Part shown: positions 13,533-35,513 of the stretch, piece by piece | How the letters are laid out: every line of letters starts with the position of its first letter | Numbering within the stretch: position 1 is the stretch's first letter | Source: Parcubacteria group bacterium Gr01-1014_20 | GTDB lineage: Bacteria; Patescibacteriota; Minisyncoccia; UBA6257; 2-01-FULL-56-20 | DNA: 64,000 nucleotides | Assembly (NCBI GenBank): GCA_007376265.1 | Contig: VMFW01000002.1 | Location: forward strand, 13,970-77,969 | Direction: 5' to 3' | Position numbers and translations under genes: made by a program | Notes under the pieces: model-generated | Databases searched by the model: none | What the model saw: only the letters and a program-made list of their open reading frames with translations | Told to the model about the DNA's origin: nothing

Positions 13533-13538
13533 AAAAAA

Positions 13539-16948: not shown

Positions 16949-18775
16949 CTATCTAAGGACCTGCAAGAGTTGCTGTAACTGTTGACTAATCTGGCTTAGC
17001 TGGGTCGAAAAAGATTGGATCACTGACGCCGACGGAGTCGCGCCGGTATTAACCCCACCGCCAGAAGAACCCGCTTCACAGGTCGGCGCCGGACCGCCTC
17101 GAAGTGCGTAATCGTCAATCAGGGTCTTGTCTAAAATGTCCACCTTGCCATCGCCATTCACGTCGGCATTCACCCCAGTCGGAATTTGAGTGCTCTGGAG
17201 GGTATAAAGCTGGATCAAAGTGACATCAACAACGTTTACAACCCCATCACCATTTAAGTCTCCGCAAACCCCAGAAACAGACACTGGCGCAATTTTGGTG
17301 ATGAAATCTTCCGCAGCGTAACCTTTATAGCGATTATCCCAATGGATACTCGCCGACCAAGAATCACCACTTAAACTCGATAGGCCGGCCACCGTGCCTT
17401 TTGTTCCAACCGCAATAGTTGTAGAAATATCGCCATCGGGAGTTTTCCTAAGTGGGAACGCTTCTTTCGCCTGCACCCTATCTCCAACCGCTAAACCCAA
17501 GCTGGTCTTAGTTAATAGTTTATTGTCGCAAGTCGGCGCCGGCCCTCCGCGATTCAAGTAGTTAACGAGAGTGGTTACATCCAAAATATCCGGCCTCCCG
17601 TCGCCATTTAAGTCCACCTTAAGCCCGGTCGGGATCGGCACTCCACCAAACACATAGTCGGTTATATCGGTAGTGCTGGAAGGATTATCGAGATCGTTCT
17701 GATCAATCACTCCATTGCCATCTATGTCGCCGCAATCACCCGCCGAAACCTTCGGCAAGACCGTCTCGTCCTTAGAAGTTTTCGTGAGCCAATCTTCCGC
17801 CGACCACCCATCTTCACCTGTATCGTAGTTCACTGCCCACCACCAACGACCCAAGATTGACCAAACCGGCCCACCAGTGATTGTTCCCCTAGCGTTAGGA
17901 AGTTGTATCCCAATATGTACTCCGCTCGGACCAGTTCTGACGTTTAAATTATCGGTGGTTATAACTGAGTCTCCCACTTTGAACTTTACGCTCGGTTGGC
18001 TAAGCACTGCATTCGCGTCAATCACATCCACCGTCAAAAACCTCGAAGCCGTAAACCCGCTGATGTCCGTAACTTTTGCTTCTATCTTATACGTTCCGCC
18101 ATTTTTATAAACGTGAGTAGCCGCGATATCACCACCGCTTAAAAGGTTGTAAGTATTTGAAGTGCCGTCACCCCAGCTTACTAAATAAACCAGAGTCCCC
18201 CCTTCTGGGTCATGGCCTTTCACCCTCCACCAATTGCTGTGCCCGGCACCTACGCTCGTTGGGCTTACAAAAGAGTCCACCGCAAAATATGGTGACTTGC
18301 TAAACTCGGCTGACAATCCCGAACCCGCTGTATCTTTTTTGTCCATCCAATCTTCTACTGACCAACCTGAATTGCCCTTGCTCCACTTAACCTGCCACCA
18401 CCAGTATGCGCCTTGTTGCACAGAGCCACCAATAATCACCCCATCATAACCAGGATTCGCCACCGAAGTTGCCGGACCCCCTGGATTCTCTCGAATATTT
18501 AAATAATCCACCGCTTGTACGCTCTCTCCGACGATAAATTTTTGACCGGGTGTAACCGTCACTGTCGGACCAATCGATACCGCAGGTGGTACATAAACAG
18601 ATCCGGCACCTTCCGCCGCTGAAAGCTGCGCTTGAAGCTGTCGAATCTGCTCCAAAAGCAACTGAATTTGTGCCCGAAGATCTTGGGCCGTAAGCTCACT
18701 CGTTTGAGCTAAACCTCGACCAGGCACAGAAACCAAAAACAAAAACACTAAACCCAAAACAATGAGTTTCTTCAT
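16949..18775 (-). CDS. secreted surface protein: signal peptide, N-terminal heptad helix, SH3b-like x3, PKD, two dockerin-like repeat pairs, C-terminal amphipathic helix
   Basis: Dockerin Ca-loop pairs CGDIDGNGVIDQNDL/DLNGDGRPDILDVTTLVNYLNRGGPAPTCD and CGDLNGDGVVNVVDVTLIQ/DVNGDGKVDILDKTLIDDYALRGGPAPTCE; PKD motif SWGDGTS; SH3b-like GESVQAVDYLNIRENPGG; C-terminus QLSQISQQLQQLLQVLR. Confidence 0.8.
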   Translation of the reverse strand: MKKLIVLGLVFLFLVSVPGRGLAQTSELTAQDLRAQIQLLLEQIRQLQAQLSAAEGAGSVYVPPAVSIGPTVTVTPGQKFIVGESVQAVDYLNIRENPGGPATSVANPGYDGVIIGGSVQQGAYWWWQVKWSKGNSGWSVEDWMDKKDTAGSGLSAEFSKSPYFAVDSFVSPTSVGAGHSNWWRVKGHDPEGGTLVYLVSWGDGTSNTYNLLSGGDIAATHVYKNGGTYKIEAKVTDISGFTASRFLTVDVIDANAVLSQPSVKFKVGDSVITTDNLNVRTGPSGVHIGIQLPNARGTITGGPVWSILGRWWWAVNYDTGEDGWSAEDWLTKTSKDETVLPKVSAGDCGDIDGNGVIDQNDLDNPSSTTDITDYVFGGVPIPTGLKVDLNGDGRPDILDVTTLVNYLNRGGPAPTCDNKLLTKTSLGLAVGDRVQAKEAFPLRKTPDGDISTTIAVGTKGTVAGLSSLSGDSWSASIHWDNRYKGYAAEDFITKIAPVSVSGVCGDLNGDGVVNVVDVTLIQLYTLQSTQIPTGVNADVNGDGKVDILDKTLIDDYALRGGPAPTCEAGSSGGGVNTGATPSASVIQSFSTQLSQISQQLQQLLQVLR

Positions 18776-18869
18776 TTTTAAAATATTTAAAATATTTTTT
18801 AGTAAAACCCGACTACCAATATTGTATCAAAAAACCACCTCCGAAACCAAGGGGCAAAAAACCACCAAA

Positions 18870-21800
18870 CTAAGGTTGAACGATTCTCAAAAGTGATTGG
18901 AGCTGCCTGGCAACCCCCTCTAGCTGGGCGCCAATTGATTCAATGAGCGATGATGAAAGTGGCTGCCCTATTGGTAATTTAGGAGGTAATTTTGGAGACG
19001 TTGGAGATGTCTTCGTCGGGAAACCTGTCGGCACCCTTAAAATCTTCTCATCGAGGGAAACAGCGCCAAGAATCTTCACAGTCGATGCATCGACCCCTGA
19101 AACTTTGGGTCTAAATTTTAAATTTACCACACCGGTAGAACCCGAAGGAACCCTTACTCCACCTTCCTGATCGTAGATACCCACCTTAGCCCCGCCTCCC
19201 TGAACACCCGTTTGAACCTCGAAATCTTGGAACTGGGAGTTTTTTTCCACTCCGACAAATTCAAGTTTGTTCAGGTCAAATGAAAAATTAATTTGTAAAC
19301 CAATAAGGGGCGCATTCGTGTTTACACTCAAGGGAACCGAAATTAGTCCGTCTGCACTTGTAGTTCCTGAACTCAAACTCACCGAAGCCGAAGCGGTACT
19401 CTCTGGATCAGCCGTGCAATCCGGCACCGGCCCGCCCCTAAAAGCATGATCTATGAGATGAACCACATCGATAATATTAATCACACCGTCAGCATTCAAG
19501 TCCCCAATCCACCTTGGACTTGGTTCCGGCCCGCCCCTAAAAGCATGATCTATGAGATGAACCACATCGATAATATTAATCACACCATTATTATCAAGAT
19601 CCCCGCAACGAAAACCGCCGGTCAAATCAAGAGAATAAAGATCAAGTGCATAACCTCCTTGAATATCCGAATTTCTAGCATCCGGCCAAACAACTCGAGT
19701 CCCGTAAATTACTGGCGTCGTCTGGGCCGACCCTTCGTAAGTAACTCGGCTTTCAGTGTTAGTTGAAAGATCGTACATATAAACGTCATCATTTCCTGTA
19801 GTGTCCAAATACCAAACTATCTTACTTCCATAAATATCCGGCCTAAGTTTTTTACTTGTTCCAGAACTAATTCTAGTCTCAAGCCCAGTTGCAATGTCAT
19901 ACATATAAATATTTTCGTTCGTGCCATCGCGCTTATCCTCATAAACCACTTTGTCACCATAAATTGCCGGGTTAGTCTGGTTAGCGGTGCTGGTTGTTAA
20001 CCTCGTCATAGCCACAGTCGAAACATCGTACATATAAATATCGAAGTTGCCATTCCGGTTGTCCTCCCAAACAATTCTATTTCCCCAAATATCCGGCGCG
20101 CGTTGGAAAGCCGTGCTAGTTGTAATCCGAGTTTCAAAAAAGGTAGAAAGTTTTCGCATATAAATATCCGGAACCCCACTGCCAGACCACCTTTCGTCCG
20201 CCCAGACTACATAATCCCCATAAATCGCCGGAGCTTCCTGATCCTTGAGGCTCGTCGAAATCGCCGTTTCAACCCCAGTTGAGAGGTTTTTCATGTAAAT
20301 ATCGCCGCCGTTTGATGCGTCATTTCGGTGATCTTCCCAAACCACCAGATCTTCATAGACAGCAGGCAAAACCGTGCCGTAGATTGGGTGTGAAGCCACC
20401 TCCGTCGTTGTCCCACTTAAAAGGTTATAAAGATAAATCCGCCTCACCCCGTTGCTCCAATCTTCGTACACCACCTTATCACCCCATATTGCTGGCGATT
20501 GTTGGTTGTCATAGCCACTCACAACTTTAGTGATCTGATTCAACAAAGACGCCTTCCTCTGGGTTGTTAGTCCGGCATAAGTCGTTATAACCTTGACCTC
20601 CTTATCGTACTGACCCGGAGAAACAATCGAGGTTGAGTAATCGGTTCCCGAAGCAGCCTGCAAAACCCCGTCCTCGTACCACTGATAGGTGCACCCACTA
20701 CAAGTGCCCGGTAGACTGCCCGGACTCGTCGAAAACGCCCTAAAGTAAACCGCCTGACCAGAAATGACCTGAAGCTCACGGTTCGTGCTAGTGGGGTTGG
20801 GACTAAAACCTGCGTAAAGATCAACCTTGGGCGTCCCCTTAACTTTCAAGGCAACCATGTCTCGCCCCGAATTACCCTGCATATCCGTCACGGTTAGACG
20901 CAGAATATAATAACCGTCATTAACTAAACCGGACGTGTCCCAACCGGAAAAAAGCAACTCAGTGGGTGGCAAAACATTTGACGAGTGAATCGGAATCCAA
21001 TTGTTAGTTTGATAATCCGTTGATTTTATGTAATCCAAACTGTAACTCGCAAAATCCGGCCCTTCAACCCGACCCTGAATGTCCGTAAGTCCTGAAACAA
21101 TTCCGTAGCTATAACTTGAAGTCGGCACCTCGAGCTTTGCAAAAAGCGAAAAATCTTTGGTAAGTGAATCCAAAGCGTCAATTCTTCCCCATCCTCCCGT
21201 AAAGATGGGATGTCCAACATTGTGAGTGCCGTTTTTGATAGCGTAGACTATTCTTTCTGATGACCAGGCAGGGTGAGCTTGTTTCAAAAGTGCCGCCAGC
21301 CCCGCTACGTGAGGCGTCGCCATACTTGTCGCTCCATTCTGAAAGTGCAGGGTATCAAAACACGGCTGTAGGTCCGGATTACTAATCCACGGCTCTACAC
21401 TGTCCCATCTTGCTGAACAAATAAAGGCGCCTGGCGCCACCAGGTCCGGTTTTAAAACTATCCCATCAGCCTGACTTCCAGTCTTGTAGTAAGCCGGACC
21501 GCGAGAGCTAATCGCTAAAATCTGGTCTTGAACTGGGTTAATGTCGTAATCATAAAAGAAAGAGCTGGAAGGATAGTTAATTTTGTAAGCAGCTCCAACT
21601 GCTATAACTTTGACCGCATCGGCCGGACTAGTCACCGCGTTCTCACCGCTATCCACGTCACCGTTTCCATAATTCCCAGCCGAAGCCACTACCACCACCC
21701 CCAAAGCTACTGCGTTATCTGCCGCAACCGACGTAGGAGAGTTGGGCGAGTGCAAGCCCCCTAAACTTAAATTAATCACGTCGAGATGATCTGCAAAATC

Positions 21801-22874
21801 ACCGTCCTGATTCGGGTCAACCGATCGTTCTATGGCCGCAATAACGTTTGGTATATAACCCAAGTTTTGAGAATTTAGAACCTTATAAACGTAGATGGTC
21901 GAGCTCGGCGCTACTCCCCTCAAAACACCATCGGCGGCGGCAATCCCAGCCACATGTGTGCCGTGATAATGATCGTCCATCGGGTCGGCGTCGTTGTTCA
22001 CAAAATCCCACCCTCCCCCAATCTTCGGGCAAGTTCCAGCCAAAATTTGCGGCGTGGTGCAGGATCCAAAATCCGGATGAGTGTAATCAATACCGCTATC
22101 AATCACTCCAATCCGAGCTCCCTGACCATTCAAACACGGCTGCCCCGAAGTCGCGCAACTCGCACCGTTTGCGTCCAATCCCCAAGACAAGTCCGCCTTT
22201 ATAAGCGGCACCGAATCCATAAGCGCGCCATAAAAAACATACTCCGGGTAAACCGCCTCCACCTCCGGCATCTTTTCAATTTTCTTAATATCCTCCGCCG
22301 AAAGAACGTTGACTGAAAAACCATTAAACACGTCCTTAAATTCACGAATTACCTTAACGCGAGAAACCGACTTAGAGAGAGTTGGCAGAAAAGATTTGTG
22401 CTTACTCAAAACGGCCGAACGATAATTCTTAACCTCTTGCTTCAAACTCTGTTGGACACTGAACAAATTAGCTGATTGGCTGACGGCCACCTCCTTTTCT
22501 CGCCTCACCTTATACTCTGAAACAGACGGGTCCTTAAGTTTAATTGTGTATCCGACAATCTCTCGCTCTTTTGGTAAACCGAGTGCTCGAACCGAGGCGC
22601 TTTTCGGCGGAACAGCTGACTCCTGAAGACTGACGAGCATCGATAAATCGCTAACCTTTTTCTTCAACTCCTCAATCTGTAATCTCAGACCATCCAAGTT
22701 CAAGGCAGTAGGAGAAAAAGTGGGACTCACAACCTTAGTCGAACCATCAATGGGTTGCTTCTTAATACTGTAGGGGTCGCTTTTGGAATACGGTACGTTT
22801 AAAGCCGAAACAAACCCCGGCAAAATGAAAATCGCCAAAAGACCAAAGAACAAAAACCTAAAAAATGTTCTCAT
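18870..22874 (-). CDS. giant secreted S8 subtilisin-like protease with ~8 TolB-type beta-propeller repeats, a dockerin-like pair, a cohesin-like domain and a C-terminal amphipathic helix
   Basis: Catalytic triad motifs IGVIDSGIDYTHPDF, HGTHVAGIAAADG and GTSMATPHVAGLAALL; repeats of the PAIWGDKVVYED/IYxxxL type; CGDLDNNGVINIIDVVHLIDHAFRGGP x2; cohesin-like LISVPLSVNTNAPLIGLQINFSFDLNKLEFVGVE; 4-nt ATGA overlap with tktC. Confidence 0.85.
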   Translation of the reverse strand: MRTFFRFLFFGLLAIFILPGFVSALNVPYSKSDPYSIKKQPIDGSTKVVSPTFSPTALNLDGLRLQIEELKKKVSDLSMLVSLQESAVPPKSASVRALGLPKEREIVGYTIKLKDPSVSEYKVRREKEVAVSQSANLFSVQQSLKQEVKNYRSAVLSKHKSFLPTLSKSVSRVKVIREFKDVFNGFSVNVLSAEDIKKIEKMPEVEAVYPEYVFYGALMDSVPLIKADLSWGLDANGASCATSGQPCLNGQGARIGVIDSGIDYTHPDFGSCTTPQILAGTCPKIGGGWDFVNNDADPMDDHYHGTHVAGIAAADGVLRGVAPSSTIYVYKVLNSQNLGYIPNVIAAIERSVDPNQDGDFADHLDVINLSLGGLHSPNSPTSVAADNAVALGVVVVASAGNYGNGDVDSGENAVTSPADAVKVIAVGAAYKINYPSSSFFYDYDINPVQDQILAISSRGPAYYKTGSQADGIVLKPDLVAPGAFICSARWDSVEPWISNPDLQPCFDTLHFQNGATSMATPHVAGLAALLKQAHPAWSSERIVYAIKNGTHNVGHPIFTGGWGRIDALDSLTKDFSLFAKLEVPTSSYSYGIVSGLTDIQGRVEGPDFASYSLDYIKSTDYQTNNWIPIHSSNVLPPTELLFSGWDTSGLVNDGYYILRLTVTDMQGNSGRDMVALKVKGTPKVDLYAGFSPNPTSTNRELQVISGQAVYFRAFSTSPGSLPGTCSGCTYQWYEDGVLQAASGTDYSTSIVSPGQYDKEVKVITTYAGLTTQRKASLLNQITKVVSGYDNQQSPAIWGDKVVYEDWSNGVRRIYLYNLLSGTTTEVASHPIYGTVLPAVYEDLVVWEDHRNDASNGGDIYMKNLSTGVETAISTSLKDQEAPAIYGDYVVWADERWSGSGVPDIYMRKLSTFFETRITTSTAFQRAPDIWGNRIVWEDNRNGNFDIYMYDVSTVAMTRLTTSTANQTNPAIYGDKVVYEDKRDGTNENIYMYDIATGLETRISSGTSKKLRPDIYGSKIVWYLDTTGNDDVYMYDLSTNTESRVTYEGSAQTTPVIYGTRVVWPDARNSDIQGGYALDLYSLDLTGGFRCGDLDNNGVINIIDVVHLIDHAFRGGPEPSPRWIGDLNADGVINIIDVVHLIDHAFRGGPVPDCTADPESTASASVSLSSGTTSADGLISVPLSVNTNAPLIGLQINFSFDLNKLEFVGVEKNSQFQDFEVQTGVQGGGAKVGIYDQEGGVRVPSGSTGVVNLKFRPKVSGVDASTVKILGAVSLDEKILRVPTGFPTKTSPTSPKLPPKLPIGQPLSSSLIESIGAQLEGVARQLQSLLRIVQP

Positions 22875-23872
22875 TTCCTCCTTACAACCCTTTTAACCGC
22901 CGCCTTAATATCCTTCACTCCCATCTCATACTTCTCAATTAATTCTACCGCTTTTCCGGATTCCCCAAAAGTGTCTTGCATCCCTATAAACTCTATCGGC
23001 GTTGGGGCGTGTTTCGCCAAAACTTCGGCCACTGCCCCGCCCAAACCTCCAATAACCTGGTGCTCCTCAACGGTCACCACCGCCCGAGCTTTTTTTGCCA
23101 GTTCAATAATTTTCTTCCCATCCAACGGCTTTATGGTGTGGCAATTCAAAACCACCGAACTAATTTTATCTTTCTCTAAGTCCCTGGCCGCCACTAGGAC
23201 ATTATATAAAAGGGGTCCCGCTCCAATAATCAAAACATCCGGATTTTTCCTACCTGGAGTCTCCCATAAAACTTCAGCCTTTCCCGGAGTAAACGAAGAA
23301 TTCTCCGTCGTAAAAAGATGGGTTTTTTCTCTGCCTACTCGCAGATAAATCGGTCCAAAAACCTTGGCCGCCGCGAGCGTGGCTTTCTTGGCTTCAATCG
23401 CGTCGCACGGCACGAACACCTTCATATTCGCCATCACCCGCATGGTTGTAATATCTTCAATCGCCTGATGCGTCGCACCGTCTGGTCCCACTGAAATCCC
23501 AGAGTGCGCCCCAACAATTTTCACGTTTGAATTATTATAAGCAATCGTAGTTCTAATCTGTTCCCAATTTCTACCTGGACTGAAAGTCGCGTATGAAGCA
23601 ATGAAAGGAATCTTTCCCGAAACCCCCAAACCAGATCCAATCGTCGCCAAATTCTGTTCCGCCACCCCCATCTCAAAAAATCTCTCCGGAAACTTTTTAG
23701 CGAACGCCTCCATCCGAGTCGATTCAGTAAGGTCCGCGCAGAGTGCCACCACATTTTTATCTTTTTCTCCGGCCATGATTAATCCTTCACCAAATCCGTC
23801 ACGGGTGGCCACCATCTTTACTTTTTTATCGTCAAACAAATCCGGATTAAGTTTTGCTAATGGGTTCAACAT
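22871..23872 (-). CDS. tktB: transketolase, C-terminal subunit (pyrimidine-binding and C-terminal domains)
   Basis: Split-transketolase C half: FEMGVAEQNLATIGSGL...GISVGPDGATHQAIEDI. Confidence 0.9.
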   Translation of the reverse strand: MLNPLAKLNPDLFDDKKVKMVATRDGFGEGLIMAGEKDKNVVALCADLTESTRMEAFAKKFPERFFEMGVAEQNLATIGSGLGVSGKIPFIASYATFSPGRNWEQIRTTIAYNNSNVKIVGAHSGISVGPDGATHQAIEDITTMRVMANMKVFVPCDAIEAKKATLAAAKVFGPIYLRVGREKTHLFTTENSSFTPGKAEVLWETPGRKNPDVLIIGAGPLLYNVLVAARDLEKDKISSVVLNCHTIKPLDGKKIIELAKKARAVVTVEEHQVIGGLGGAVAEVLAKHAPTPIEFIGMQDTFGESGKAVELIEKYEMGVKDIKAAVKRVVRRK

Positions 23873-23906
23873 AAAATTGTCTCAAATAAAGTAATTTCAG
23901 AAAAAT

Positions 23907-24779
23907 TTAGCCACCATGAATTTTTCGACCAATTGCTTCTAATTCTTTTAACGCTAACCTGGCCTGTTCCGCGTTAGGCGGTATCCCGTGCCATTTGTAA
24001 TCGTTTTCCATAAAACTCACGCCTTTCCCGGGGATGGTGTGCGCAATAATCATCGTTGGTTTCTCGTGAATCGCTTTGGCTTCCGCCACAGCATCCACAA
24101 TGTGTTCAAAATTATGTCCGTCAATTTCAATCACGTGCCAATTAAAAGCCTCATACTTTGCCCGAAAAGGCTCAAGTGGCATTATCTCTTCCGTGTTGCC
24201 GTCAATCTGAATATTGTTCCGGTCAACCACGGCTGTGAGGTTGCTCAAGCGATACTTGCCGGCAAACATCACCGCCTCCCATGTATTTCCCTCCTGGTGC
24301 TCGCCATCCGAGGTTAAGCAATAAGTTCGATATTTTTTACCATCCAGTCTTCCAGCCAAAGTTATGCCGATTGCTTGAGAAAGCCCCGAACCCAAAGGCC
24401 CGGAGGTTGTTTCCAGTCCCGGTAGGGCTGTTCGGTGAGGATGACCCTGTAGCCTTGAGTTAATTTTTCGCAAGGTTTTTAGCTCTTCAATAGGAAAATA
24501 CCCAGCTCGCGCCATTGTTGCATATAAAACGGGGCAAATGTGGCCGTTCGAAAGCACGAGCCTATCCCTATCTGGCCAGCCTGGTTTCTTGGGGTTTTGA
24601 TTTAAAATATGAAAATAAAAAGCCGTAAAAATATCGGCCATCCCCAAAGGCCCAGCCGAATGCCCTGAACCAGCCTCAAGAAGCATCCGAATAATATCCT
24701 GGCGAATCCGGTTCGCCGTCATCTCCAAAAACTCTATCTTCTTATCGTTTAATCCTTGCATAAAATTAAAACTGCTCAA
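23907..24779 (-). CDS. tktA: transketolase, N-terminal subunit (TPP-binding)
   Basis: GHSAGPLGMADIF, GDGE and HTIPGKGVSFMEN motifs. Confidence 0.9.
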   Translation of the reverse strand: MSSFNFMQGLNDKKIEFLEMTANRIRQDIIRMLLEAGSGHSAGPLGMADIFTAFYFHILNQNPKKPGWPDRDRLVLSNGHICPVLYATMARAGYFPIEELKTLRKINSRLQGHPHRTALPGLETTSGPLGSGLSQAIGITLAGRLDGKKYRTYCLTSDGEHQEGNTWEAVMFAGKYRLSNLTAVVDRNNIQIDGNTEEIMPLEPFRAKYEAFNWHVIEIDGHNFEHIVDAVAEAKAIHEKPTMIIAHTIPGKGVSFMENDYKWHGIPPNAEQARLALKELEAIGRKIHGG

Positions 24780-24805
24780 AATCTAAAAAGAATAAATTAC
24801 GCCGT

Positions 24806-25495: not shown

Positions 25496-25500
25496 GATTT

Positions 25501-25962: not shown

Positions 25963-25984
25963 TGATAAAATTATAGCACAACCA

Positions 25985-26012
25985 AAAAACTCCGGTTCGC
26001 GGAGTTTTTTGG
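25985..26012. terminator. bidirectional hairpin AAAAAACTCCG-GTTCG-CGGAGTTTTTT
   Basis: A- and T-runs flank a 7-bp stem; lies between the 825-aa protein gene end and the rpiB start. Confidence 0.6.
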
Positions 26013-26030: not shown

Positions 26031-28508
26031 CTACTGCGGAAAAGTAAAGCTTACGTCTTCCTTAACAATAATCTCGTAACCTTTGCTAGGCTTTAAATTA
26101 GTCAGACCCAAATTTGATCCGGGAATCCAAAAATCTCCTTTGATGTCTTTAACAATGCTGATCTTATCTTTAATAGAAGAAAAAAAGCTCTCAACTCCGG
26201 TCTCAAAAGTTAACGGGTACCCGATGTAGTTGGGAAAACTATCACCTTTGTAAAGTTTTGTTGTAAGCCCCACCGGTCCGTAACCATAAATATACATCGA
26301 GAAAGCCCTAGTGGTGTAAAGTTTATAACCCTTACCAAACTCTACCACCTTGAGAGTCTCAATATTCTTTGATGGTTCGAAAACCAAATCTTGCGTCCCC
26401 TCGGTTGTTTTTATTACATCTATGTAGCTCAACCAATCCTTAAATATGCTTCGCACCTCCCTGCCCGAACCCTCCGGCAACCGGTGAAAAGAAATAAAAT
26501 TCCAACCTGGATCGACATTGATCGCTTGATAGCCAGCCGTCTGCCCAGATACGTTCACATTAAAACTATGAGTATCTAATCCTCCTTTCCCGTCTTGTAC
26601 CGTTACCGCTACTTTGTAAGTGCCAGCGAAAGACCAAGCGTGAGAGACATTCATTGTTCCACAGGTATCGGTTGTAAGTTCAGTAGCCGAAACGGCGCAA
26701 GCCATTCCCATGCCTGGCGAACCATCTCCCCAACCTACCGACCAACTCATCACGTCTCCATCAGGATCTTTCGCACTCCACGAAAAATTGACGGCCTGCC
26801 CAACCAAAATTTGCGAAGGAATGGATGGCACTCCCACAATTTCTGGAGAATGGTTAGTTGAAACTGAACCACCCACCACCACACTCATACTCGTCTTCGC
26901 TTGTTGTCCCTTGTCATCCGTCACGTAGAAAATCGGCGTATAGGTTCCTCCATTGCTATACGAATGAGTGAAGGTAGCTGTGTTCTGAACAGACAAAGCT
27001 TTCGGCGCAGCGCCAAGATAATTATTTGCGGTAGGTTCATCCCCCCAAATCACCGAATAACTCAAACTGCCATTTTCCGGATCATAGGCTTTCACCGTCC
27101 AAGTTCCCATCTCGCTAACTTTTAAAGTCGTCGGCCCGCTCACCCCCGAAACCACCGGCGGCAAATTATTTGGATTTATTATTGACTCGCCAATCACAAA
27201 CACCGCGCTCCGGCCACTCATTCCTCCATCCGCTGCTGAAACGGTGATAATCACTTTGTTCCGATATTGTTGTCCCAAATCCACCGGAACCGTCCATTCA
27301 AAAAGCCCGTCATTATCCGTTTTTTCAGAAATCACATACGGCATCGGCTCGGCCATCAAACATGCTACTTGTGGATTGTCGTATAAACAAGAAATGTATT
27401 TATGAAGTGTGATCTTCACCGCCCCAATCGGAGCAAAAGTTGTATTGGCTACCCCTGCCGATACAGACCCCTGTCCACTCACCGTTGGTTCACCCAAGGG
27501 TTTTAAGCTAGTCAAGGTCGGCCACACCTGACTCCAAGCAATTTTGTAAGTCTGTCCTGGTTGCCAAGTTTCTCCCGATGAAGGCGAGTAAACTTTGAAC
27601 CCACCCTGCTCTGGCCATGGTCGTGGCGTCGGCGGAATCGGGCAACGCATTGTCACTCCAGGAACAGACCCCGACCCCGTTGACTGCAATACTCCCACCC
27701 CTCCCGAACCGGATCCGACCGATCCATCCGACACTACTTCCAGCTTCGCCTCAATTCGTTGTTTAGTTTCGATGTCTAGTACGCCCGTTGCGGAAAGTCC
27801 CGCTTGAGTCTGGAATTTTGTGACTGCCTTCGCAGTCAGAGGTCCATAATAACCCGTCACCAATCCTTCGGGATAAATCGTGGGATCAATTTTCAAAAAT
27901 TCCTGAACGACTTTCACCGATTCACCACTGTAACCGACTTTGGTTCCAGCCTCCGGCAAAACACATCCTGCCATACCTAAAATCACTTTCTTCGCTGTGA
28001 ATCCCCAAAAGCCACCCTCAATGTTGTGCCACTGCAACTGTCCCCAAAGCGTCACCCTCTGGCCCTCTGATTTCTTGAGTTCTACCAACACTTGGTCGTT
28101 CACCGCCTTCACCAAATAACTCTTTCCGCCTTGAGTCGGATAAGTCAATCTCGTCGGTTCAACAATTTTATGTGTCCCCCACATATAAATCGACAATAAC
28201 CCATCGGATCCTTGTGCCGAAAGCACTCCGCTTATGGTATCCCACCCCCGCTCCGGTTCTATCGGTTTAACCACTGTCGGAAAAATGGGTTTGCTCTGTC
28301 CCCGCAAAGAATCCAGCTGTGCTTGCAAACTCTTAATAAGCTCCATCAGGGAGTTTATCTGTTTTTGCATGGCTTCAATGGATGCATTGCTATTTCGGCT
28401 CTGCATTTCCTCTTCTATATTCACCGTAGCCGACACCCGAGCCATCGGGGCGACAAGCGTTAACACCATCGCTCCTAACACCAAACCACCAATTACTTTT
28501 TTGCTCAT
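26031..28508 (-). CDS. secreted 825-aa protein: signal peptide, N-terminal heptad helix, peptidoglycan-binding-like domain, PKD-like repeats, unknown C-terminal domain
   Basis: IEAMQKQINSLMELIKSLQAQLDSLRG after the signal peptide; PG_binding_1-like GYSGESVKVVQEFLKID...GPLTAKAVTKFQ; SWSVGWGDGSPG PKD motif. Confidence 0.8.
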   Translation of the reverse strand: MSKKVIGGLVLGAMVLTLVAPMARVSATVNIEEEMQSRNSNASIEAMQKQINSLMELIKSLQAQLDSLRGQSKPIFPTVVKPIEPERGWDTISGVLSAQGSDGLLSIYMWGTHKIVEPTRLTYPTQGGKSYLVKAVNDQVLVELKKSEGQRVTLWGQLQWHNIEGGFWGFTAKKVILGMAGCVLPEAGTKVGYSGESVKVVQEFLKIDPTIYPEGLVTGYYGPLTAKAVTKFQTQAGLSATGVLDIETKQRIEAKLEVVSDGSVGSGSGGVGVLQSTGSGSVPGVTMRCPIPPTPRPWPEQGGFKVYSPSSGETWQPGQTYKIAWSQVWPTLTSLKPLGEPTVSGQGSVSAGVANTTFAPIGAVKITLHKYISCLYDNPQVACLMAEPMPYVISEKTDNDGLFEWTVPVDLGQQYRNKVIITVSAADGGMSGRSAVFVIGESIINPNNLPPVVSGVSGPTTLKVSEMGTWTVKAYDPENGSLSYSVIWGDEPTANNYLGAAPKALSVQNTATFTHSYSNGGTYTPIFYVTDDKGQQAKTSMSVVVGGSVSTNHSPEIVGVPSIPSQILVGQAVNFSWSAKDPDGDVMSWSVGWGDGSPGMGMACAVSATELTTDTCGTMNVSHAWSFAGTYKVAVTVQDGKGGLDTHSFNVNVSGQTAGYQAINVDPGWNFISFHRLPEGSGREVRSIFKDWLSYIDVIKTTEGTQDLVFEPSKNIETLKVVEFGKGYKLYTTRAFSMYIYGYGPVGLTTKLYKGDSFPNYIGYPLTFETGVESFFSSIKDKISIVKDIKGDFWIPGSNLGLTNLKPSKGYEIIVKEDVSFTFPQ

Positions 28509-28679
28509 ATTTTTTATTAAAACTTAAGACCTTTTTTATATACGTCCTGCTTCATGATTCACGTTGCATGACCCATGTCTATGCCTAATTATACGCCAAA
28601 AATCTGCAAATGTTACCAACAAAATACAGACGGGGTTTACCGTCTGCATTTTGCCCATAAAGCAACTGAGCTAACTACT

Positions 28680-31600
28680 CTACCTAACGTTGACCTCGAA
28701 AATAATGCTCTTTACCCCTCCCCTCGCATTAGTAGCCGTCACTTGAATCGTTTTTATCCCAGCCTGACTGTAAATATGTCTTGGATCAGGCGTCACAAAA
28801 ACCCCACTGTCCCCGCTATAACTATTAGAGACTCCGTCTCCCCAATTTACAACGTAACTAATCGGACCATATCCCGTACTCACCGCTTTAACTCTCCAAG
28901 AACCTTGTTGATTGGGCGTTAGACTATTAGAACCGGTTATAGTCAATGTCGTTGGAGCTGGCGCATATAGACTTGCCTTCTCAAGCCAATTATCAGCTGT
29001 GTACCCAACTGGCGGGACGGTAGGGGGATTACCAGTCACATATCTAATCTTATACCAACAGTAGCCTCCTCCGAGCACGGGTCCCTCTAAAGCCTTTCCA
29101 GTTGTTCCCGCCCCCATACCCACGAGCGCGCTCCCAGTCGGAGAAGCTGTACTCCTCACAGTAATACCAGCAGTGGTAACGACATCCTCACCATAGGGAT
29201 AAACTGGATTAACCGTAAACCTTGCCGCACAAGCAGTCTTCACCGGAAAAGAAACATTAACCGCAAGACTGCGACTAGCCCGGAGCGCCCCAGAGTCAAC
29301 CGCTGTCACTCTGATTGTGTAGGGATCGTCCATTTTGTAAGTGTGCGTGATGTTCACAGCGACACCACTGTTTCCGGTGTAGGCGCTAAAATTTCCATCA
29401 CCCCAATCAACTTGATAGTTGAGTAAGCCTCCTTCTGCATCAGCTCCCGTAACTACCCAGTTCCCCTGCACTCCAACCCCGAGAGCGGTCGGTCCCGTCA
29501 GGCTAGCAACGGTTGGCGCTCCATTGGCTGCGCCCACTGTTACCGTTTTTGACTGAGTCGTCACCTGACCCACTTTTTGCCCCCTAACCGTCACCGAAAT
29601 ATTTTTCTGGCCAGTAGTCAAATACGTATGGGAGAAAGTTTTTGTCTCTCCACTTAACCAAATAGAGCCGGTCAGCAATGGACCGCCGTCGCCCCAATCA
29701 ACCGAATACGTCATCGTGGTCGAAGCCGTCGCCGTAACCTGCCAAGTTCCAAGTATGTTTGCTGGTAATGTGGTGGGTCCAGTAAAACTGGAGATTACAG
29801 GAACAGAAAGCGCCAAAACCTTAATATTGTACGTCTGCGTAGTTGATAGTTGCCCATCACTCACAGTAACCGTCATCACATAATCTCCCGGAGTTTTGTA
29901 CGTATGGATCGGGCCTTCAGTTGTAACACCACTCGAACCAATAATTCCGGTGCGGGTGGTGGAACTTCCGTCTCCAAAATCAATATTATAGGTAATCGTA
30001 ACCGTTGGAATATTTGGCGAGTTTGCCGTATCTCTCACCGAAAGCTGCCAGGAATTACTATCAAACACATACACTTGAGTCGGTCCAGCAATAGTCAGAA
30101 CAGGCGGCAAGTTAACAACCGTTGAGCTCACCATCACCACCAAGGATTCCGTATCCGAAAGTTGACCATCAGAAGCCGTTACGGTGATAGTGCGGCTCCC
30201 ACTCTGCGTGAAAGTGTGTTGGGCAGGTACACTTTGTCCGCTCGCAATATTCGGAAATGTCGAAGCAGCTGTCCCATCTCCCCAATTGAACGTATAACTT
30301 AGAGCCGTTCCGTCTGGGTCAACCGCTTTCGCCTGCCAAGTTGTATTTACGTTCACGGTCGCCTGATTCGGAGTCGTAAAAGGATCAAGCACCGGCGGAC
30401 GATTGGGGCCAGCGGCTCCTACCACACTAACTGAAAAACTTTCCGTGTCGGTTAACTGTCCATCCGAAACCGTCACGGTAAATGTTTTTGTTCCGGATTG
30501 AGTGTAGGTGTGAGAAATGCTGATCGCCTGTCCGCTCGCGCCTGTGTAGGTTGTGTTGCTCGTACCATCCCCCCAGTTCACATTGTACGCAAGAGCTGGA
30601 GAATCGGCATCGAGTGCCATCACTTGCCAAGAGCCGGATGTATTAACATTAATCGTGTTTACACCAGTCGGCACCCCCAAAACAGGCGCCTGATTTGGCG
30701 GCGGAGGGCAAACTACTATAAGTAGGAAGTTTTCTACCGACCAACCGTCATAATTACCCGGAAAATCCATTCTCCACCAAGTGTATCCATTCGCCGAAAC
30801 TGGTCCGTCAACAATTAACCCTTCGGTCCCTAGCGGCACTGTTCCCACCACCGTCGCTCCGGTTGAAGCCGACACCCGCACATTCAAGTTAGCTGCTGTT
30901 CGAACAGTACAACCTCTCGCAAAACCTCCCACTGTGCCGCCACCACCAGCCTGATTCAGTCCTCCAGAACCACCTTGAGTTGTGATGGTAAACGTTCGGC
31001 TTGTGCTGTTTATTCCTCCCGCCTCAACATTCCCAGCGTAAATCGCAATTGCAAAACTAGTTCCTTCCAATATTTGGCCGTTAAACTCCTGCGGAACTGT
31101 CCATACGTAAACTCCATCATTCGGTTCGTCTTGAGCCAAAAGTCCAACTCCGGCCAGGTAAATATGTACTCTCGTTACACTCGATGGTGCCGTCCACCTA
31201 ATTGTAATCGGCTCTCCTGGATGCCATATGTCACCCGCCGCTGGAGAAATAATAGTAATCGCTCCGCCCACAGACTGATTCCCACCCGAAACTAATTCCA
31301 GCCAATAAACTCCTCCACCCGCCTCTGCCGACCAACCCCTCGGACCGCCATCATAATCTATTCGCCACCAGCAATAACCAACCGTCGCGCCAGGACCTCC
31401 AATAATAGTCCCCATCGCTCCATTCGCTTTGTTACCTAAAATCGTCCCGTTCGGAGTTTCTCTAACTCTTAAGTCCTGCTCGGCGCTCGTATTCACCACT
31501 CGCACCCTATCCCCAATTTGAAATCGCGTACTGCACGGCGCGGCCACCTGCGTGGTGAGAACTGATTCAGCCGAAAGCCCACCACCATCTGTCACGGTAA

Positions 31601-34040
31601 GCTTGATATTGAAACTCCCGACTTGAGCGTAAGCGTGAGAGAGTTCTTGAGTCACCGAGGCTCCAGTGATTGCAACTGGTGCTACAGCGCTACCATCGCC
31701 CCAATCAACTTTGTATGAAGCTAGCGCCCCTTCTAAGTCAGTCGCCTGAAATCGCCAAGTGTTTGGAATATTTGTAAATGAACTGGTTGAACCATTGAAA
31801 CTCACGATGGTTGGCGGTTGATTGCCCCGCCCATACTTACATCTATACCCCACCCATCTAAACGGGGGGGCATCGGAAATGGCTTGGCAGTTCCAGGCAC
31901 CACCGGTTGCGGCCGCCATGCCTGCGGCGTCGAGAGAATTTCGAGCCGGCTCACTCGGTATCGAGACCTGCCCATTCTCAACAAAGTAATAATAGGCTTC
32001 TGTAAAAACGCTTCCCTGACTCGGCTGGATTTTCCTCCCCAAGATGTTATCCCCTGTAAACGCCCACTCGCCAGTTAAGTGTCCGATTGAACTTAAGTAG
32101 TCCATCACCGACCACCCATCTGGCCCGTAATCGTAATTAACTTTGACCCAAGTGTAACCACCAACGGTTTGCGGTGCTTCTATCACCACTCCCTTAGCCG
32201 GCGCAAACTGCCTAAACCCAGAATACAAAATGTCCTTGTATTGAGTGCCTAAAACGTAACTGCCATTTGCCTCCACTCGAACATTTACGTTCGCCGTAAC
32301 CACCACTCTATCGCCCACCCCAATCGGACCCCCTCCACCCTGGGCTGTCACCGTAACCGTAAACGGGTATTGAGCGCTTAAACCGGCGGCGTCCTTAACC
32401 CTAAACATCAAAGAATAGGTCCCCGCCACTGTAAACGTATGCGTCAAAGCCGCCACCGTTCCGGCTGGAGTCGCGCTTCCATCTCCCCAGGTCGCCTCGT
32501 ATGTCAACACATCCCCAGTCGCGTCTATTGCTACTATCGTCCAGGTCCCACCCTGCCCAACATTCAAACTGGTCGGCCCGTCCACTCGAGAAATCACTGG
32601 CGGTTGATTGTTGTCCCCGCCAGGAACTGGGTCACCAATCGTGAACTGATTACTTAAAATAGTATTCGGTGAGCTTGTGTCTCTCCGATTAACCGTCGCC
32701 TTTATTTTATAAGTGCCATTTGCAATCGTAGTCGGAATTACCCAGCTAAAATCTCCTCCCCCCTGAATACTGACTGGGATATTGTCTTTAACAATCGCGA
32801 TGCTGTTCAAATTGTTTCCATTCGCATCAACTAAAATTAGCGATACCTCGCTCACGTTCCAAGCCGTTGGAGTATTCCACCCAATTCGATGAGTTTGACC
32901 CTTAGCCCAACTCTCTCCGCCTACGGGAGAGGAAAAACTACCCTCCCCTGTGGGTGTTGATGTCGGATTTCCGCCGGGCGGCGCCGTACCAGAAATCCTG
33001 AAAGCGCCACTAATAGAGTTTCGATCGCTTCCATTCCCGCTGTAATCGGCCGTCGCCTTAACCACGTACAAACCATCTTTAACATCCGAGGCGATCATCC
33101 AACTCGAACCAGTCGTATAGCCACCACTATTATTCCCTGGATTAACCTCGCTTCCTTTTGTGATGATCACCCTCTCGGTAGGAGCAGTAGTTGAATCGTT
33201 ATACGGACCAGCCAACTTCGCAGTTAATCCAACCGGAGCGTAATATTGATAGACCGGCAATGTACCCCAGCTAACGGGCAAATTCGTTCCTTTTTGATAA
33301 GTCGCCCCACCGGATGGTTGAGATAATGTGAAATCTCCTCCCGCGCTTGGCGGCGGAACGTTAGTGTTGCTCGGCAAAGTAACTTTTGCCAACCACATGG
33401 TTCCATCAGTCGCCGCCTCCGCTGACCAACCGATTAAATCCGTACAACTCGTAATCCCATTGGGACAATAACGCCCCCAATTAATCTTCCACCAAATATA
33501 ACCATCCTGATAATAAGGCCCTTCCTCAATCACTTTCCCACCTAAAATAAACGGCCCGTCCAAAACCTTTCCCTTATTACCCACGTAAATGGTAGTAATG
33601 ACATTATCAACACGGTTAAGTCCCTCGTAAACTTGAGATAAAATAGACGGCTGTCTTCTCACCCTCAAGGTATCCGATAAAACCTCAACCTCATCGTCCT
33701 TCACAAATCTAGGTTGAAGTTTAGAAATTCCAGATTCGGCCACCCATCCGTCTGGGTTCTCGTCAAAATCGACATTCCAATACCAAACATTTCCGCTATT
33801 ACTCGGACCAGCAATCACTGTTCCAATCGAACGATTGGGCTGGCTACCTAAATCAGCGCTAGTCGCCGTCGGAAACTCCTTAACCTTCAGGTTGGCGTTA
33901 GGCGCTGCTACCACTTGAACTCTATCGTCAATCGAAAACGTTGTGTTTGGTAGAACTTGTGCCTCAGCCATCCCGAGAAACCAAGGCGTCGACCCGAACA
34001 AAAACCCCGCTAAAACCGCAAAAACAATTGCTTTTTTCAT
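28680..34040 (-). CDS. giant (1786 aa) secreted protein with multiple SH3b-like and PKD-like (xWGDG) repeats
   Basis: Signal peptide; at least 5 SH3b-like modules (GDRVQVVAAPNANLKVKEFP, GVGDRVVVTANVNVRV, FQIGDRVRVVNTSAEQDLRVRETPNG); about 8 PKD-like modules with the WGDGS/T signature. Confidence 0.85.
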   Translation of the reverse strand: MKKAIVFAVLAGFLFGSTPWFLGMAEAQVLPNTTFSIDDRVQVVAAPNANLKVKEFPTATSADLGSQPNRSIGTVIAGPSNSGNVWYWNVDFDENPDGWVAESGISKLQPRFVKDDEVEVLSDTLRVRRQPSILSQVYEGLNRVDNVITTIYVGNKGKVLDGPFILGGKVIEEGPYYQDGYIWWKINWGRYCPNGITSCTDLIGWSAEAATDGTMWLAKVTLPSNTNVPPPSAGGDFTLSQPSGGATYQKGTNLPVSWGTLPVYQYYAPVGLTAKLAGPYNDSTTAPTERVIITKGSEVNPGNNSGGYTTGSSWMIASDVKDGLYVVKATADYSGNGSDRNSISGAFRISGTAPPGGNPTSTPTGEGSFSSPVGGESWAKGQTHRIGWNTPTAWNVSEVSLILVDANGNNLNSIAIVKDNIPVSIQGGGDFSWVIPTTIANGTYKIKATVNRRDTSSPNTILSNQFTIGDPVPGGDNNQPPVISRVDGPTSLNVGQGGTWTIVAIDATGDVLTYEATWGDGSATPAGTVAALTHTFTVAGTYSLMFRVKDAAGLSAQYPFTVTVTAQGGGGPIGVGDRVVVTANVNVRVEANGSYVLGTQYKDILYSGFRQFAPAKGVVIEAPQTVGGYTWVKVNYDYGPDGWSVMDYLSSIGHLTGEWAFTGDNILGRKIQPSQGSVFTEAYYYFVENGQVSIPSEPARNSLDAAGMAAATGGAWNCQAISDAPPFRWVGYRCKYGRGNQPPTIVSFNGSTSSFTNIPNTWRFQATDLEGALASYKVDWGDGSAVAPVAITGASVTQELSHAYAQVGSFNIKLTVTDGGGLSAESVLTTQVAAPCSTRFQIGDRVRVVNTSAEQDLRVRETPNGTILGNKANGAMGTIIGGPGATVGYCWWRIDYDGGPRGWSAEAGGGVYWLELVSGGNQSVGGAITIISPAAGDIWHPGEPITIRWTAPSSVTRVHIYLAGVGLLAQDEPNDGVYVWTVPQEFNGQILEGTSFAIAIYAGNVEAGGINSTSRTFTITTQGGSGGLNQAGGGGTVGGFARGCTVRTAANLNVRVSASTGATVVGTVPLGTEGLIVDGPVSANGYTWWRMDFPGNYDGWSVENFLLIVVCPPPPNQAPVLGVPTGVNTINVNTSGSWQVMALDADSPALAYNVNWGDGTSNTTYTGASGQAISISHTYTQSGTKTFTVTVSDGQLTDTESFSVSVVGAAGPNRPPVLDPFTTPNQATVNVNTTWQAKAVDPDGTALSYTFNWGDGTAASTFPNIASGQSVPAQHTFTQSGSRTITVTASDGQLSDTESLVVMVSSTVVNLPPVLTIAGPTQVYVFDSNSWQLSVRDTANSPNIPTVTITYNIDFGDGSSTTRTGIIGSSGVTTEGPIHTYKTPGDYVMTVTVSDGQLSTTQTYNIKVLALSVPVISSFTGPTTLPANILGTWQVTATASTTMTYSVDWGDGGPLLTGSIWLSGETKTFSHTYLTTGQKNISVTVRGQKVGQVTTQSKTVTVGAANGAPTVASLTGPTALGVGVQGNWVVTGADAEGGLLNYQVDWGDGNFSAYTGNSGVAVNITHTYKMDDPYTIRVTAVDSGALRASRSLAVNVSFPVKTACAARFTVNPVYPYGEDVVTTAGITVRSTASPTGSALVGMGAGTTGKALEGPVLGGGYCWYKIRYVTGNPPTVPPVGYTADNWLEKASLYAPAPTTLTITGSNSLTPNQQGSWRVKAVSTGYGPISYVVNWGDGVSNSYSGDSGVFVTPDPRHIYSQAGIKTIQVTATNARGGVKSIIFEVNVR

Positions 34041-34169
34041 GTATAAATTATTAAAAAGACCTTTCTTCTATTATATACGTCTAAAAAGTCAAAGGTAATA
34101 CTCCTTATCCCCAACTAAAAACCAAAATTCCCTCGCCAAAAGCGAGGGAATAAACTTCAAACCCGACTC

Positions 34170-35513
34170 CTATCTAACTATATTATCCAACTGAGCCAGC
34201 ATTTGAACCAGCTGATTTCTAACAGAATCCAAAATCACCAACATCGTCGCTAATTCTGAATTTGAATCACTCTCGTTTATCACCCCCAACTCTGAACCAG
34301 ATGAGTTTTCAATCATCGCCGAACCTGACCTTTGCACAAGCCAGTTTTCCGCCGACCAACCCAAAAAACCATCAGCCCATATTATCTTCCACCAAACATA
34401 CCCATCCCCTATCGCTGGGCCTTCAACCACCCTCCCTCTTGCTCCACCTTTTTCCTGAGTAACAACTTCCCCTCCCTTGGTTTTCGGTAAAGATCTCACA
34501 AAAAGACCATTGACACCAGCCACCACTTCAACTGAATCACCGGCATTAAATTTCACTTTCTCTGGGCCAACAGTCACCTGAAAAGTTTCAATATCAGATA
34601 ATTGTCCATCAGAAACAGTAACTTTAAAGGTGTAAGCCCCTCCTTTGGAGTAAATATGACCAACCGCAGCGCTTCTTCCAAGACCTGCCTGTCCAAGATC
34701 AATTGATTTTCCATCTCCAAAATCCACCCAAAAATTCACGGATCCGGACTCAGACCCAGGGTCGGTTACTGACAAACCCCAACCTCCTTTTTCATTTATC
34801 CTGAGACTCCTGGGCCCAGTAATTTCCCCCAAAATTGGAGCATAATTTTTTGGAGGTTCCACAGTTCCACCTGGCCTAACCGCAACATTAACTATCAAGG
34901 ATTTCGAATCTTTTAATTGCCCGTCTGAAACCGTAACGGTGATAGTCTTGTTCCCAACTTCAGTATAGGTATGAGTTATAAAAAACGAATTTCCACTTTC
35001 TCTTTGATATGTCGAGTTAGGAGTTCCATCTCCCCAGGCCACCGTGTAACTCAAATTTTTTGAGTCACTGTCAGTCGCTAAAACTGTCCAGGATTCGGTC
35101 GAACGCAGGGCAATACTAGCTCTTCCCGAAATCGCTGACAAAACAGGAGCTGCCGGTGTATTCGGCGTAGCTATTGGGGGGAGCGGAGGAGTTGTTGTCG
35201 ACGTAGTATTGGATGGAGTAGTTGTTTGGGTAACAGCTTTCATTAAATAACCTCCCGCCGACCATCCCTCCAAACCAATATCCCATCTGACTTTCCACCA
35301 ACCAGAAGTCGGCCCGCCAATCACCGTTCCCAAATAACCCGGCCAAACCGATCCCAAAGCCGTTTGAGACGTCCCCGCTATTGGCCTCACATTTAGATTA
35401 TTCCCATTTGCTGTCACCTTCACCCTTTCTCCGGCCACAAACTGTGCCTGTACGGACGACACAACTGCAAAAAATGCGAACCCCACTAAACCAATAAATA
35501 AAAACTTCTTCAT
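34170..35513 (-). CDS. secreted 447-aa protein: SH3b-like, PKD x2, SH3b-like, C-terminal amphipathic helix
   Basis: Signal peptide, FVAGERVKVTANGNNLNVRP, two xWGDG PKD units, C-terminus SVRNQLVQMLAQLDNIVR. Confidence 0.8.
   Translation of the reverse strand: MKKFLFIGLVGFAFFAVVSSVQAQFVAGERVKVTANGNNLNVRPIAGTSQTALGSVWPGYLGTVIGGPTSGWWKVRWDIGLEGWSAGGYLMKAVTQTTTPSNTTSTTTPPLPPIATPNTPAAPVLSAISGRASIALRSTESWTVLATDSDSKNLSYTVAWGDGTPNSTYQRESGNSFFITHTYTEVGNKTITVTVSDGQLKDSKSLIVNVAVRPGGTVEPPKNYAPILGEITGPRSLRINEKGGWGLSVTDPGSESGSVNFWVDFGDGKSIDLGQAGLGRSAAVGHIYSKGGAYTFKVTVSDGQLSDIETFQVTVGPEKVKFNAGDSVEVVAGVNGLFVRSLPKTKGGEVVTQEKGGARGRVVEGPAIGDGYVWWKIIWADGFLGWSAENWLVQRSGSAMIENSSGSELGVINESDSNSELATMLVILDSVRNQLVQMLAQLDNIVR

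Follow-up and report, generated by a model that had tools for sequence, protein, structure and literature searches.

A cohesin and dockerins without a cellulosome: a putative docking system on a secreted subtilase and an SH3b-domain protein of a Parcubacteria group bacterium

Five very large secreted proteins are encoded within 19 kb, on one strand and with housekeeping genes interspersed, in Parcubacteria group bacterium Gr01-1014_20, and the question raised by this locus is whether they are held together at the cell surface by cohesin-dockerin contacts. In the window (the whole stretch of DNA analysed, 64,000 nt) the five open reading frames (ORFs) of 608, 1334, 825, 1786 and 447 amino acids (aa), here called p608, S8, p825, p1786 and p447, were all located on the minus strand and each of them starts with a signal-peptide-like N-terminus, in agreement with the original prediction that described five giant secreted proteins. 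Genuine cohesin and dockerin modules are present in this organism and locus, devoid of cellulolytic enzymes, and they are found on a protease (S8) and on a non-catalytic protein with SH3b and PKD modules (p608). Only these two of the five proteins belong to the docking system. We consider it somewhat better than an even chance that this is a non-cellulosomal cohesin-dockerin docking system of the cell envelope, and that p825, p1786 and p447 are not docked by it. The two genes and their docking modules are as follows:

16949..18775, minus strand: p608 gene; signal peptide, N-terminal coil (N-coil), SH3b, PKD-like, SH3b, dockerin 1, SH3b, dockerin 2 and C-terminal helix; non-catalytic
17528..17734, minus strand: p608 dockerin 1, residues 348-416 (Pfam, loop pattern and local hidden Markov model, HMM)
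17078..17266, minus strand: p608 dockerin 2, residues 504-566 (Pfam, loop pattern and local HMM)
18870..22874, minus strand: S8 protease gene, 1334 aa; signal peptide, N-coil, I9, S8, Ig-like middle region, 7-blade propeller, dockerin, cohesin and C-terminal helix
19416..19607, minus strand: protease dockerin, residues 1090-1153, bracketed by Cys (Pfam and AlphaFold2, AF2)
19023..19409, minus strand: protease cohesin, residues 1156-1284, the sole cohesin found in the window

The cohesin was recognized by three approaches. The Pfam family Cohesin (PF00963) matched residues 1166-1276 of S8 with 24.8 bits (cut-off 24.1). An exhaustive HMMER search of 1.84 billion representatives, with a profile made of two sequences (the S8 cohesin domain and that of protein P0002), retrieved 385 proteins at E<=1e-3, most of them multi-cohesin; two or more cohesins were found in 128 of the 150 best relatives, and one match, P0121, has six Pfam cohesins (269.8 bits) together with SLH. 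Finally, residues 1085-1334 were modelled by AF2 from a 37-sequence alignment. The model (mean pLDDT, the predicted local distance difference test, of 87.5) consists of two dockerin helices, a beta sandwich and a C-terminal helix, and in the cohesin part the pLDDT is above 90 over the strands (79-191 in model numbering). In the comparison of this model with the PDB by Foldseek nearly all of the top 50 matches were cohesins (E ~3e-8, probability 1.0), including classical type I cohesins and the non-cellulosomal cohesin 2xdh of Archaeoglobus fulgidus, the latter being the second-best structural match and also the best cohesin match by sequence profile. The model and its Foldseek matches thus display the nine-stranded beta jelly-roll of cohesins. 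The cohesin-like beta-sandwich that had been proposed for the protease is therefore borne out by Pfam, by a profile search that reaches scaffoldins and by structure prediction, in which the region does model as a cohesin. The six-frame scan of the window detected this one cohesin and no multi-cohesin protein, and a further ~17 kb of the contig contained no additional cohesin or dockerin, which leaves a single cohesin in ~81 kb.

The dockerins were matched by Dockerin_1 (PF00404, cut-off 22.9) with 50.2 bits over the two modules of p608 and with 25.9 bits over the one module of S8. In each p608 dockerin we see two D-x-[ND]-x-[DN]-G loops and, at the end, RGGPAPTC, so that both the two Ca-loop pairs announced for p608 and the single pair announced for the protease are really there. 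The Ca loops, for example DLDNNGVINIID and DLNADGVINIID, have D or N at positions 1, 3 and 5 and D at position 12, and every dockerin is composed of two of these 12-residue EF-hand-like loops with a helix after each. The helices were predicted at 17-29 and 50-62 of the C-terminal AF2 model for S8 and, with low confidence, at 371-376/397-409 and 515-525/547-559 for p608; the paired loop geometry, on which the original prediction had staked its dockerins, is the canonical one. Its count has to be lowered, since it gave dockerins to three proteins and they are present in two, p608 and S8: HMMs built from the local dockerins and cohesins and run at E up to 100, as well as Pfam, gave no cohesin or dockerin in p825, p1786 or p447.

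Inside the S8 dockerin there is a 61-nt exact direct repeat (19427-19487 equal to 19526-19586). As both Ca-loop/helix halves are hence identical in DNA, a recent gene conversion is suggested that keeps this dockerin internally symmetric. All the local dockerins, and all those examined in the relatives of the protease described below, start with a Cys (CGD or CAD) and end with PxPxC, and the two bracketing Cys are invariant in the alignment of these relatives (A4). The pair may act as a disulfide clasp joining the dockerin ends.

The catalytic domain of the protease is the only one found on the docking proteins. The 1334-aa protein is a Sec-secreted I9/S8 subtilase (peptidase family S8), with a match to the catalytic HMM, an I9 propeptide and the triad motifs in its translation (DSGID at 259 for Asp, HGTHVAG at 304 for His and GATSMATPHVAG for Ser). 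About eight TolB-like propeller blades had been announced behind the catalytic domain. We counted seven, with blade motifs beginning at residues 794, 837, 882, 927, 969, 1012 and 1054, and they are of the TIGR04275 type; TolB (TIGR02800) scored 64.8 bits, far under its equivalog cut-off of 343, and was rejected. The parts of the protein outside the docking modules are:

22803..22874, minus strand: signal peptide, residues 1-24, MRTFFRFLFFGLLAIFILPGFVSA, with the start codon in an ATGA overlap
22236..22430, minus strand: Inhibitor_I9 propeptide, residues 149-213, 36.8 bits
21189..22127, minus strand: Peptidase_S8 catalytic domain, residues 250-562, 163.8 bits
19620..20516, minus strand: 7-bladed beta-propeller of TIGR04275 type, residues 787-1085, 290.2 bits, cut-off 85 (NCBIfam)
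18879..18953, minus strand: C-terminal amphipathic helix, residues 1308-1332, SSLIESIGAQLEGVARQLQSLLRIV, seen in the AF2 model and kept in the relative P0123

The dockerin followed by the cohesin forms a C-terminal unit (the Doc-Coh cassette) that was found in other organisms too. Among the 150 best cohesin relatives, 16 have a single Doc-Coh tandem with a very short linker, behind S8, M36, lipase-like or beta-helix heads, and those with a named host belong to DPANN archaea. The closest cassette relative, P0123, comes from a Parcubacterium whose tkt C-subunit gene (tktC) is 79% identical to the one in the window. Identity between the catalytic domains of both proteases is as low as 28%, and their propellers belong to different families (TIGR04275 in the window, FG-GAP in P0123), while the region from the dockerin to the C-terminal tail is 63% identical. 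From these figures the cassette is to be regarded as the conserved element, and the enzymatic head as the part that has been exchanged by domain shuffling.

Complete cassettes were found in DPANN metagenome-assembled genomes (MAGs) of Micrarchaeota, Woesearchaeota, Pacearchaeota and Nanoarchaeota, where the heads are S8 with TIGR04275 propeller, M36, a lipase-like hydrolase or beta-helix/laminin-G, and one of the Woesearchaeota MAGs contains a Doc-Coh protein together with a 3-dockerin protein. Two of the archaeal proteins, P0002 and P0122 (Pacearchaeota), have exactly the architecture of the window protease (S8, TIGR04275 propeller, dockerin, cohesin), what hints at a transfer of the head architecture between DPANN and the candidate phyla radiation (CPR). 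No synteny with the pentose-phosphate genes that precede the protease gene in the window was found at the P0002 locus. The dockerins of these two hydrolases and those of P0132 (Nanoarchaeota) and P0133 (Micrarchaeota) are 53-62% identical to the one in the window, and the cassette dockerins as a whole make up one class with this same range of identity across CPR and DPANN. The ends of the proteins differ. The DPANN versions P0002, P0122, P0124 and P0132 have a longer N-terminal hydrophobic segment, probably a membrane anchor, and finish ~13-16 residues past the cohesin, whereas the Parcubacteria versions have a short signal-peptide-like start, the N-coil and a C-terminal helix. A metagenome scan with the cassette recovered almost solely dockerin-only loci, plus one redundant cassette locus. 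C-termini with the reverse order (cohesin and then dockerin) appeared in L036, L040, L054 (two genes), L063, L068 and L084, from marine and other metagenome contigs. Single polypeptides with both modules seem to be widespread in uncultured lineages.

The order of genes along the locus is GAPDH, p447, p1786, p825, rpiB, rpe, tkt N-subunit, tkt C-subunit, S8, p608, PGA_cap, PfkB and others. The stop codon of tktC and the start codon of S8 overlap as ATGA, just as the original prediction had it, with AGGAGG upstream and a clear signal peptide behind, and translational coupling of the protease gene to tktC is supported by this arrangement. The neighbouring genes and the sites found in the terminator and promoter scans are:

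22871..25962, minus strand: rpiB, rpe, tkt N-subunit and tkt C-subunit genes, immediately upstream of the protease gene
16893..16928, minus strand: strong terminator-like hairpin with a 16-bp stem and T tail, directly past the p608 stop codon, where the transcription unit is predicted to end
34151-34127, minus strand: strong terminator-like hairpin after p447
28616-28588, minus strand: promoter-like site upstream of p825, a consensus match
15839-16855: PGA_cap (CapA-like) gene, adjoining the multi-dockerin gene p608

These two hairpins, past p608 and past p447, are the strong ones that the terminator scan gave on the coding strand. Along the run p825-rpiB-rpe-tktN-tktC-S8-p608 the scan gave no terminator-like site before the hairpin at 16928-16893. 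Terminator and promoter calls are consensus matches and not proof; from the uninterrupted run and the promoter-like site upstream of p825, we predict a common transcript for the pentose-phosphate genes, the protease and p608, with p447 set apart. The fusion of the protease gene to the rpiB-rpe-tkt transcript, which had also been proposed, is thus retained as a prediction, helped by the ATGA coupling. The window belongs to a 152-kb metagenomic contig (ena:ERZ27284378:k139_471004), whose proteins in this stretch are assigned by NCBI to Parcubacteria group bacterium Gr01-1014_20. Between 5 and 41 kb nearly all genes are on the minus strand, and over the whole window the GC skew is strongly negative. 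Neither tRNA, rRNA nor any other Rfam family was detected in the 64 kb.

Comparison with other Parcubacteria indicates what is stable in this region. At the locus of P0123 (L005), tktC is followed by the gene of the S8-FG-GAP propeller-Doc-Coh protein (730-4809), a duplicated 3' fragment of tktC, a gene for a propeller-dockerin protein and one for a protein of 739 aa that combines five to six dockerins with SH3b and PKD. The 78-aa fragment, which separates the protease gene from the dockerin gene that follows it (L005 4870-5106, also L006 5371-5664), has 79% DNA identity to the true end of tktC in the same contig. It looks like a recombination scar, by which the position behind tktC is marked as a place where surface-protein genes are swapped. 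In a second relative (L024) the order is GAPDH, SH3b/PKD protein, PG_binding_1 protein, rpiB, rpe, tkt, a three-dockerin protein, PGA_cap and PfkB onward. The synteny in relatives, one of the checks that had been proposed, hence holds, with a dockerin-bearing surface-protein gene after tktC in two related Parcubacteria. By gene order, such genes have a conserved slot behind tktC, of which the protease is a variable occupant, since in L024 this slot holds the multi-dockerin gene alone. The link to the pentose-phosphate genes then seems to reflect a gene order preserved in a compact genome rather than functional coupling, given that the protease varies at a slot that is conserved for surface-protein genes. 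The p608 homologues P0271-P0277 all have a signal peptide, N-coil, at least one SH3b, two or three dockerins and no cohesin. PGA_cap is directly past the multi-dockerin gene in L024 as well (12781-13827) and also in a more distant CPR MAG (L012 5688-6737).

The other three proteins of the locus, together with the helices that some of the five share, are:

26031..28508, minus strand: p825; signal peptide, N-coil, PG_binding_1 (residues 194-251), two PKD modules and C-terminal domain; no cohesin, dockerin or SH3b
28680..34040, minus strand: p1786; six SH3b-like, at least eight PKD and two Kre9_KNH Ig-like modules; no cohesin or dockerin
34170..35513, minus strand: p447; SH3b, PKD, PKD, SH3b and C-terminal helix; no cohesin or dockerin
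18611-18700 (p608), 22617-22703 (protease) and 28299-28388 (p825), minus strand: N-coils, Q/L-rich heptad helices behind the signal peptide
16955-17029 (p608), 18879-18953 (protease) and 34173-34256 (p447), minus strand: amphipathic C-terminal helices, [SA]xx[LI]xS[IL]xxQLxx[IV]xxQLxxLL... at the extreme end
45159-47540: 793-aa large secreted wall-associated protein with SpaA_2 prealbumin-like, Ig-like and PG_binding_1 domains and a Ca-loop-like motif DNDGDGEVD

We counted six SH3b-like modules in p1786, three in p608 and two in p447; p825 has none. Pfam SH3_3 (PF08239) matched p1786 at 27.1 bits (cut-off 27), and a profile of 10 of the modules matched the solved SH3b domains 2kt8 (E 1.7e-5) and 2kyb (3.2e-5) and cell-wall hydrolases. 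PKD modules appear in four of the five flagged proteins. The description of p825, p1786 and p447 as stacks of SH3b and PKD modules fits p1786 and p447, but not p825, which has PKD and no SH3b; the peptidoglycan-binding domain assigned to one of the three is the PG_binding_1 of p825 (Pfam). Two stretches of p825 (residues about 85-180 and 655-825) matched no Pfam or NCBIfam family, and the N-terminal one is kept in the L024 orthologue. The CPR Pam pilus protein PamR (NF058578) was also tried as an identity and rejected. Its matches (31-110 bits against a cut-off of 300) are confined to one Ig/PKD-like stretch and correspond to Ig/PKD-domain similarity, and the chaperone-pilin system of the Pam paper is unlike the present locus. 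Parcubacteria relatives, a Liptonbacteria protein among them, keep the N-coil and C-terminal helix, and the DPANN versions examined lack both; the two helices may serve as a sorting signal particular to this lineage or as a coiled-coil assembly code. Neither dockerin nor cohesin was found in the 793-aa protein by the HMM scan.

In the explanation that we favour, the sole cohesin would, after export, bind a dockerin in trans and in a Ca-dependent way. This dockerin could be the cassette dockerin of another protease molecule, giving rise to head-to-tail chains, and a self-complementary unit working between molecules would be the simplest explanation for two modules that are inherited together with a short linker. 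Alternatively, or in addition, the ligand could be a p608 dockerin, in which case the SH3b modules would hold the protease on the cell's own or the host-cell peptidoglycan. With either ligand, proteolysis would be concentrated at the surface of a cell obliged to scavenge amino acids. In this explanation p825, p1786 and p447 are wall-associated proteins of the SH3b/PKD/PG-binding kind that belong to one conserved neighbourhood of envelope genes. Several observations weigh against this explanation. There is one cohesin for three dockerins, and the Pfam score of that cohesin is by itself marginal; the short Doc-Coh linker leaves room for binding within the molecule; the AF2 model of p608 is of low confidence (pLDDT 56.8); and L024 has its multi-dockerin gene after tktC with no protease and no cohesin gene in 22 kb. 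Furthermore, the cassette dockerins and the p608 dockerins are only 38-43% identical and so form distinct classes, for which reason p608 may not be a ligand of the S8 cohesin.

These same points have to be set against the other possible explanations. The most serious of them, still rather unlikely in our view, is that the protease dockerin is bound by the cohesin of the same molecule (as a self-cap, a stabilising clasp or autoinhibition) and that the p608 dockerins bind another partner, for example a cohesin from a different part of the genome. The constant adjacency of both modules, inherited as a unit with their short linker, the separate class of the p608 dockerins and the L024 multi-dockerin gene without a nearby cohesin would all agree with that. 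The shortness of the linker, however, makes it doubtful that the dockerin could reach the binding face and, to our knowledge, binding between molecules is the rule in all characterised cohesin-dockerin pairs. It has lower probability still, and we would not expect it, that the dockerins, and in particular those of p608 and related proteins, serve as orphan Ca-binding modules that adhere to host-surface glycans or proteins, with the cohesin-like domain a mere Ig-like surface domain. The p608 relatives do have 2-6 dockerins and no cohesin, non-cellulosomal dockerins have been treated as possible adhesins (PMC10066038), and one dockerin protein proved essential for a cultivated Saccharibacteria epibiont, where the authors of that work speculate about the targeting of host-cell glycans by such proteins (PMC10633639). 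On the other hand, the S8 cohesin is a close profile relative of scaffoldin cohesins, and the fusion of cohesin and dockerin in 16 protein clusters would be hard to explain if the modules did not interact.

The model of the original prediction, in which all five large proteins make up one cellulosome-like surface assembly through cohesin-dockerin contacts, is in our opinion improbable. It could appeal to the 19 kb shared on one strand, to the SH3b/PKD modules and terminal helices that the proteins have in common and to the conservation of the neighbourhood in L024, but three of the five proteins gave neither module at E up to 100, a scaffoldin is missing and the cohesin is a single one, and the strong terminator-like hairpin past p447 sets this gene apart. 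From the idea of a cellulosome-like scaffold repurposed for a surface protease, the docking modules on the protease and on an SH3b protein remain, and the scaffold does not, with a single cohesin in ~81 kb. A true polysaccharide-degrading cellulosome has next to no probability. Although both cohesin and dockerins are type I modules, the sole catalytic domain on the docking proteins is a protease, and Pfam scans of the neighbourhood ORFs and the large window ORFs revealed no glycoside hydrolase, carbohydrate-binding module (CBM) or scaffoldin. Multi-cohesin scaffoldins were equally missing from the six-frame scan of the window and the additional ~17 kb, no glycoside hydrolase or CBM family was matched that would put dockerins on carbohydrate-active enzymes (CAZymes) or provide binding to cellulose, and instead of SLH or sortase anchoring (no SLH match, no LPXTG-type C-terminus in the translations) we found SH3b and PG_binding_1.

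The A. fulgidus protein AF2375 has both a cohesin and a dockerin, and strong binding between cohesin and dockerin has reportedly been observed there. The system favoured here, a non-cellulosomal docking of protease and SH3b protein, is like the non-cellulosomal modules of A. fulgidus (2xdh) in its non-cellulolytic host, the few copies, the lack of a multi-cohesin scaffoldin and the possibility of both modules on one polypeptide. It differs from other non-cellulosomal systems in the S8-propeller carrier, the fixed C-terminal cassette of dockerin and then cohesin, the neighbouring multi-dockerin SH3b gene and the CPR host. With the clostridial cellulosome (type I, 1ohz, 2ccl) it has in common the two folds and a duplicated Ca-loop/helix segment per dockerin, and the identical halves of the S8 dockerin recall the dual binding mode. 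The polarity is, however, inverted, with the cohesin on the enzyme and several dockerins on a non-catalytic protein; scaffoldin, CAZyme, CBM and SLH anchor are missing and a Cys flanks each dockerin on both sides. That cohesins and dockerins also exist outside cellulosomes has been known ever since A. fulgidus and the survey of Peer et al. 2009, as cited in PMC9012536 and PMC10066038. Many of these modules are present in anaerobic methanotrophic (ANME) archaea and in Omnitrophota (PMC9012536, PMC10066038). In ANME archaea, scaffoldin-like proteins carry as many as five cohesins and the dockerins are mostly on ABC-transporter binding proteins, and the authors discuss the assembly of surface protein complexes (PMC9012536). 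An Omnitrophota genome encodes a giant protein with nine dockerins, for which cell-cell adhesion is discussed (PMC10066038). As in these two groups, here the modules are on surface proteins of an uncultured, partner-dependent microbe, but unlike in ANME there is one cohesin and it is on a protease. In a literature collection that is incomplete we found no published description of the Doc-Coh cassette on Parcubacteria or DPANN hydrolases, nor of paired multi-dockerin SH3b proteins.

A wider proposal, which we put forward tentatively and regard as doubtful, is that the Doc-Coh cassette is a portable self-complementary assembly tag common to CPR and DPANN. By means of it S8, M36, lipase-like and beta-helix hydrolases could plug together in scaffoldin-free daisy chains on ultra-small, host-dependent cells, the multi-dockerin SH3b proteins would be wall-bound organisers that invert the polarity of the cellulosome, and the N-coil and C-terminal helix might be a second lineage-specific code for assembly or sorting. 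The locus is small, well-defined and testable, with one protease that has both docking modules and one wall-binding partner with two dockerins, and it has clear relatives in bacteria and archaea alike. Should the cassette be self-complementary, enzyme chains could be built with it in the absence of a scaffoldin, and protein engineering would gain a compact tag; otherwise the multi-dockerin SH3b proteins would become candidates for host adhesins.

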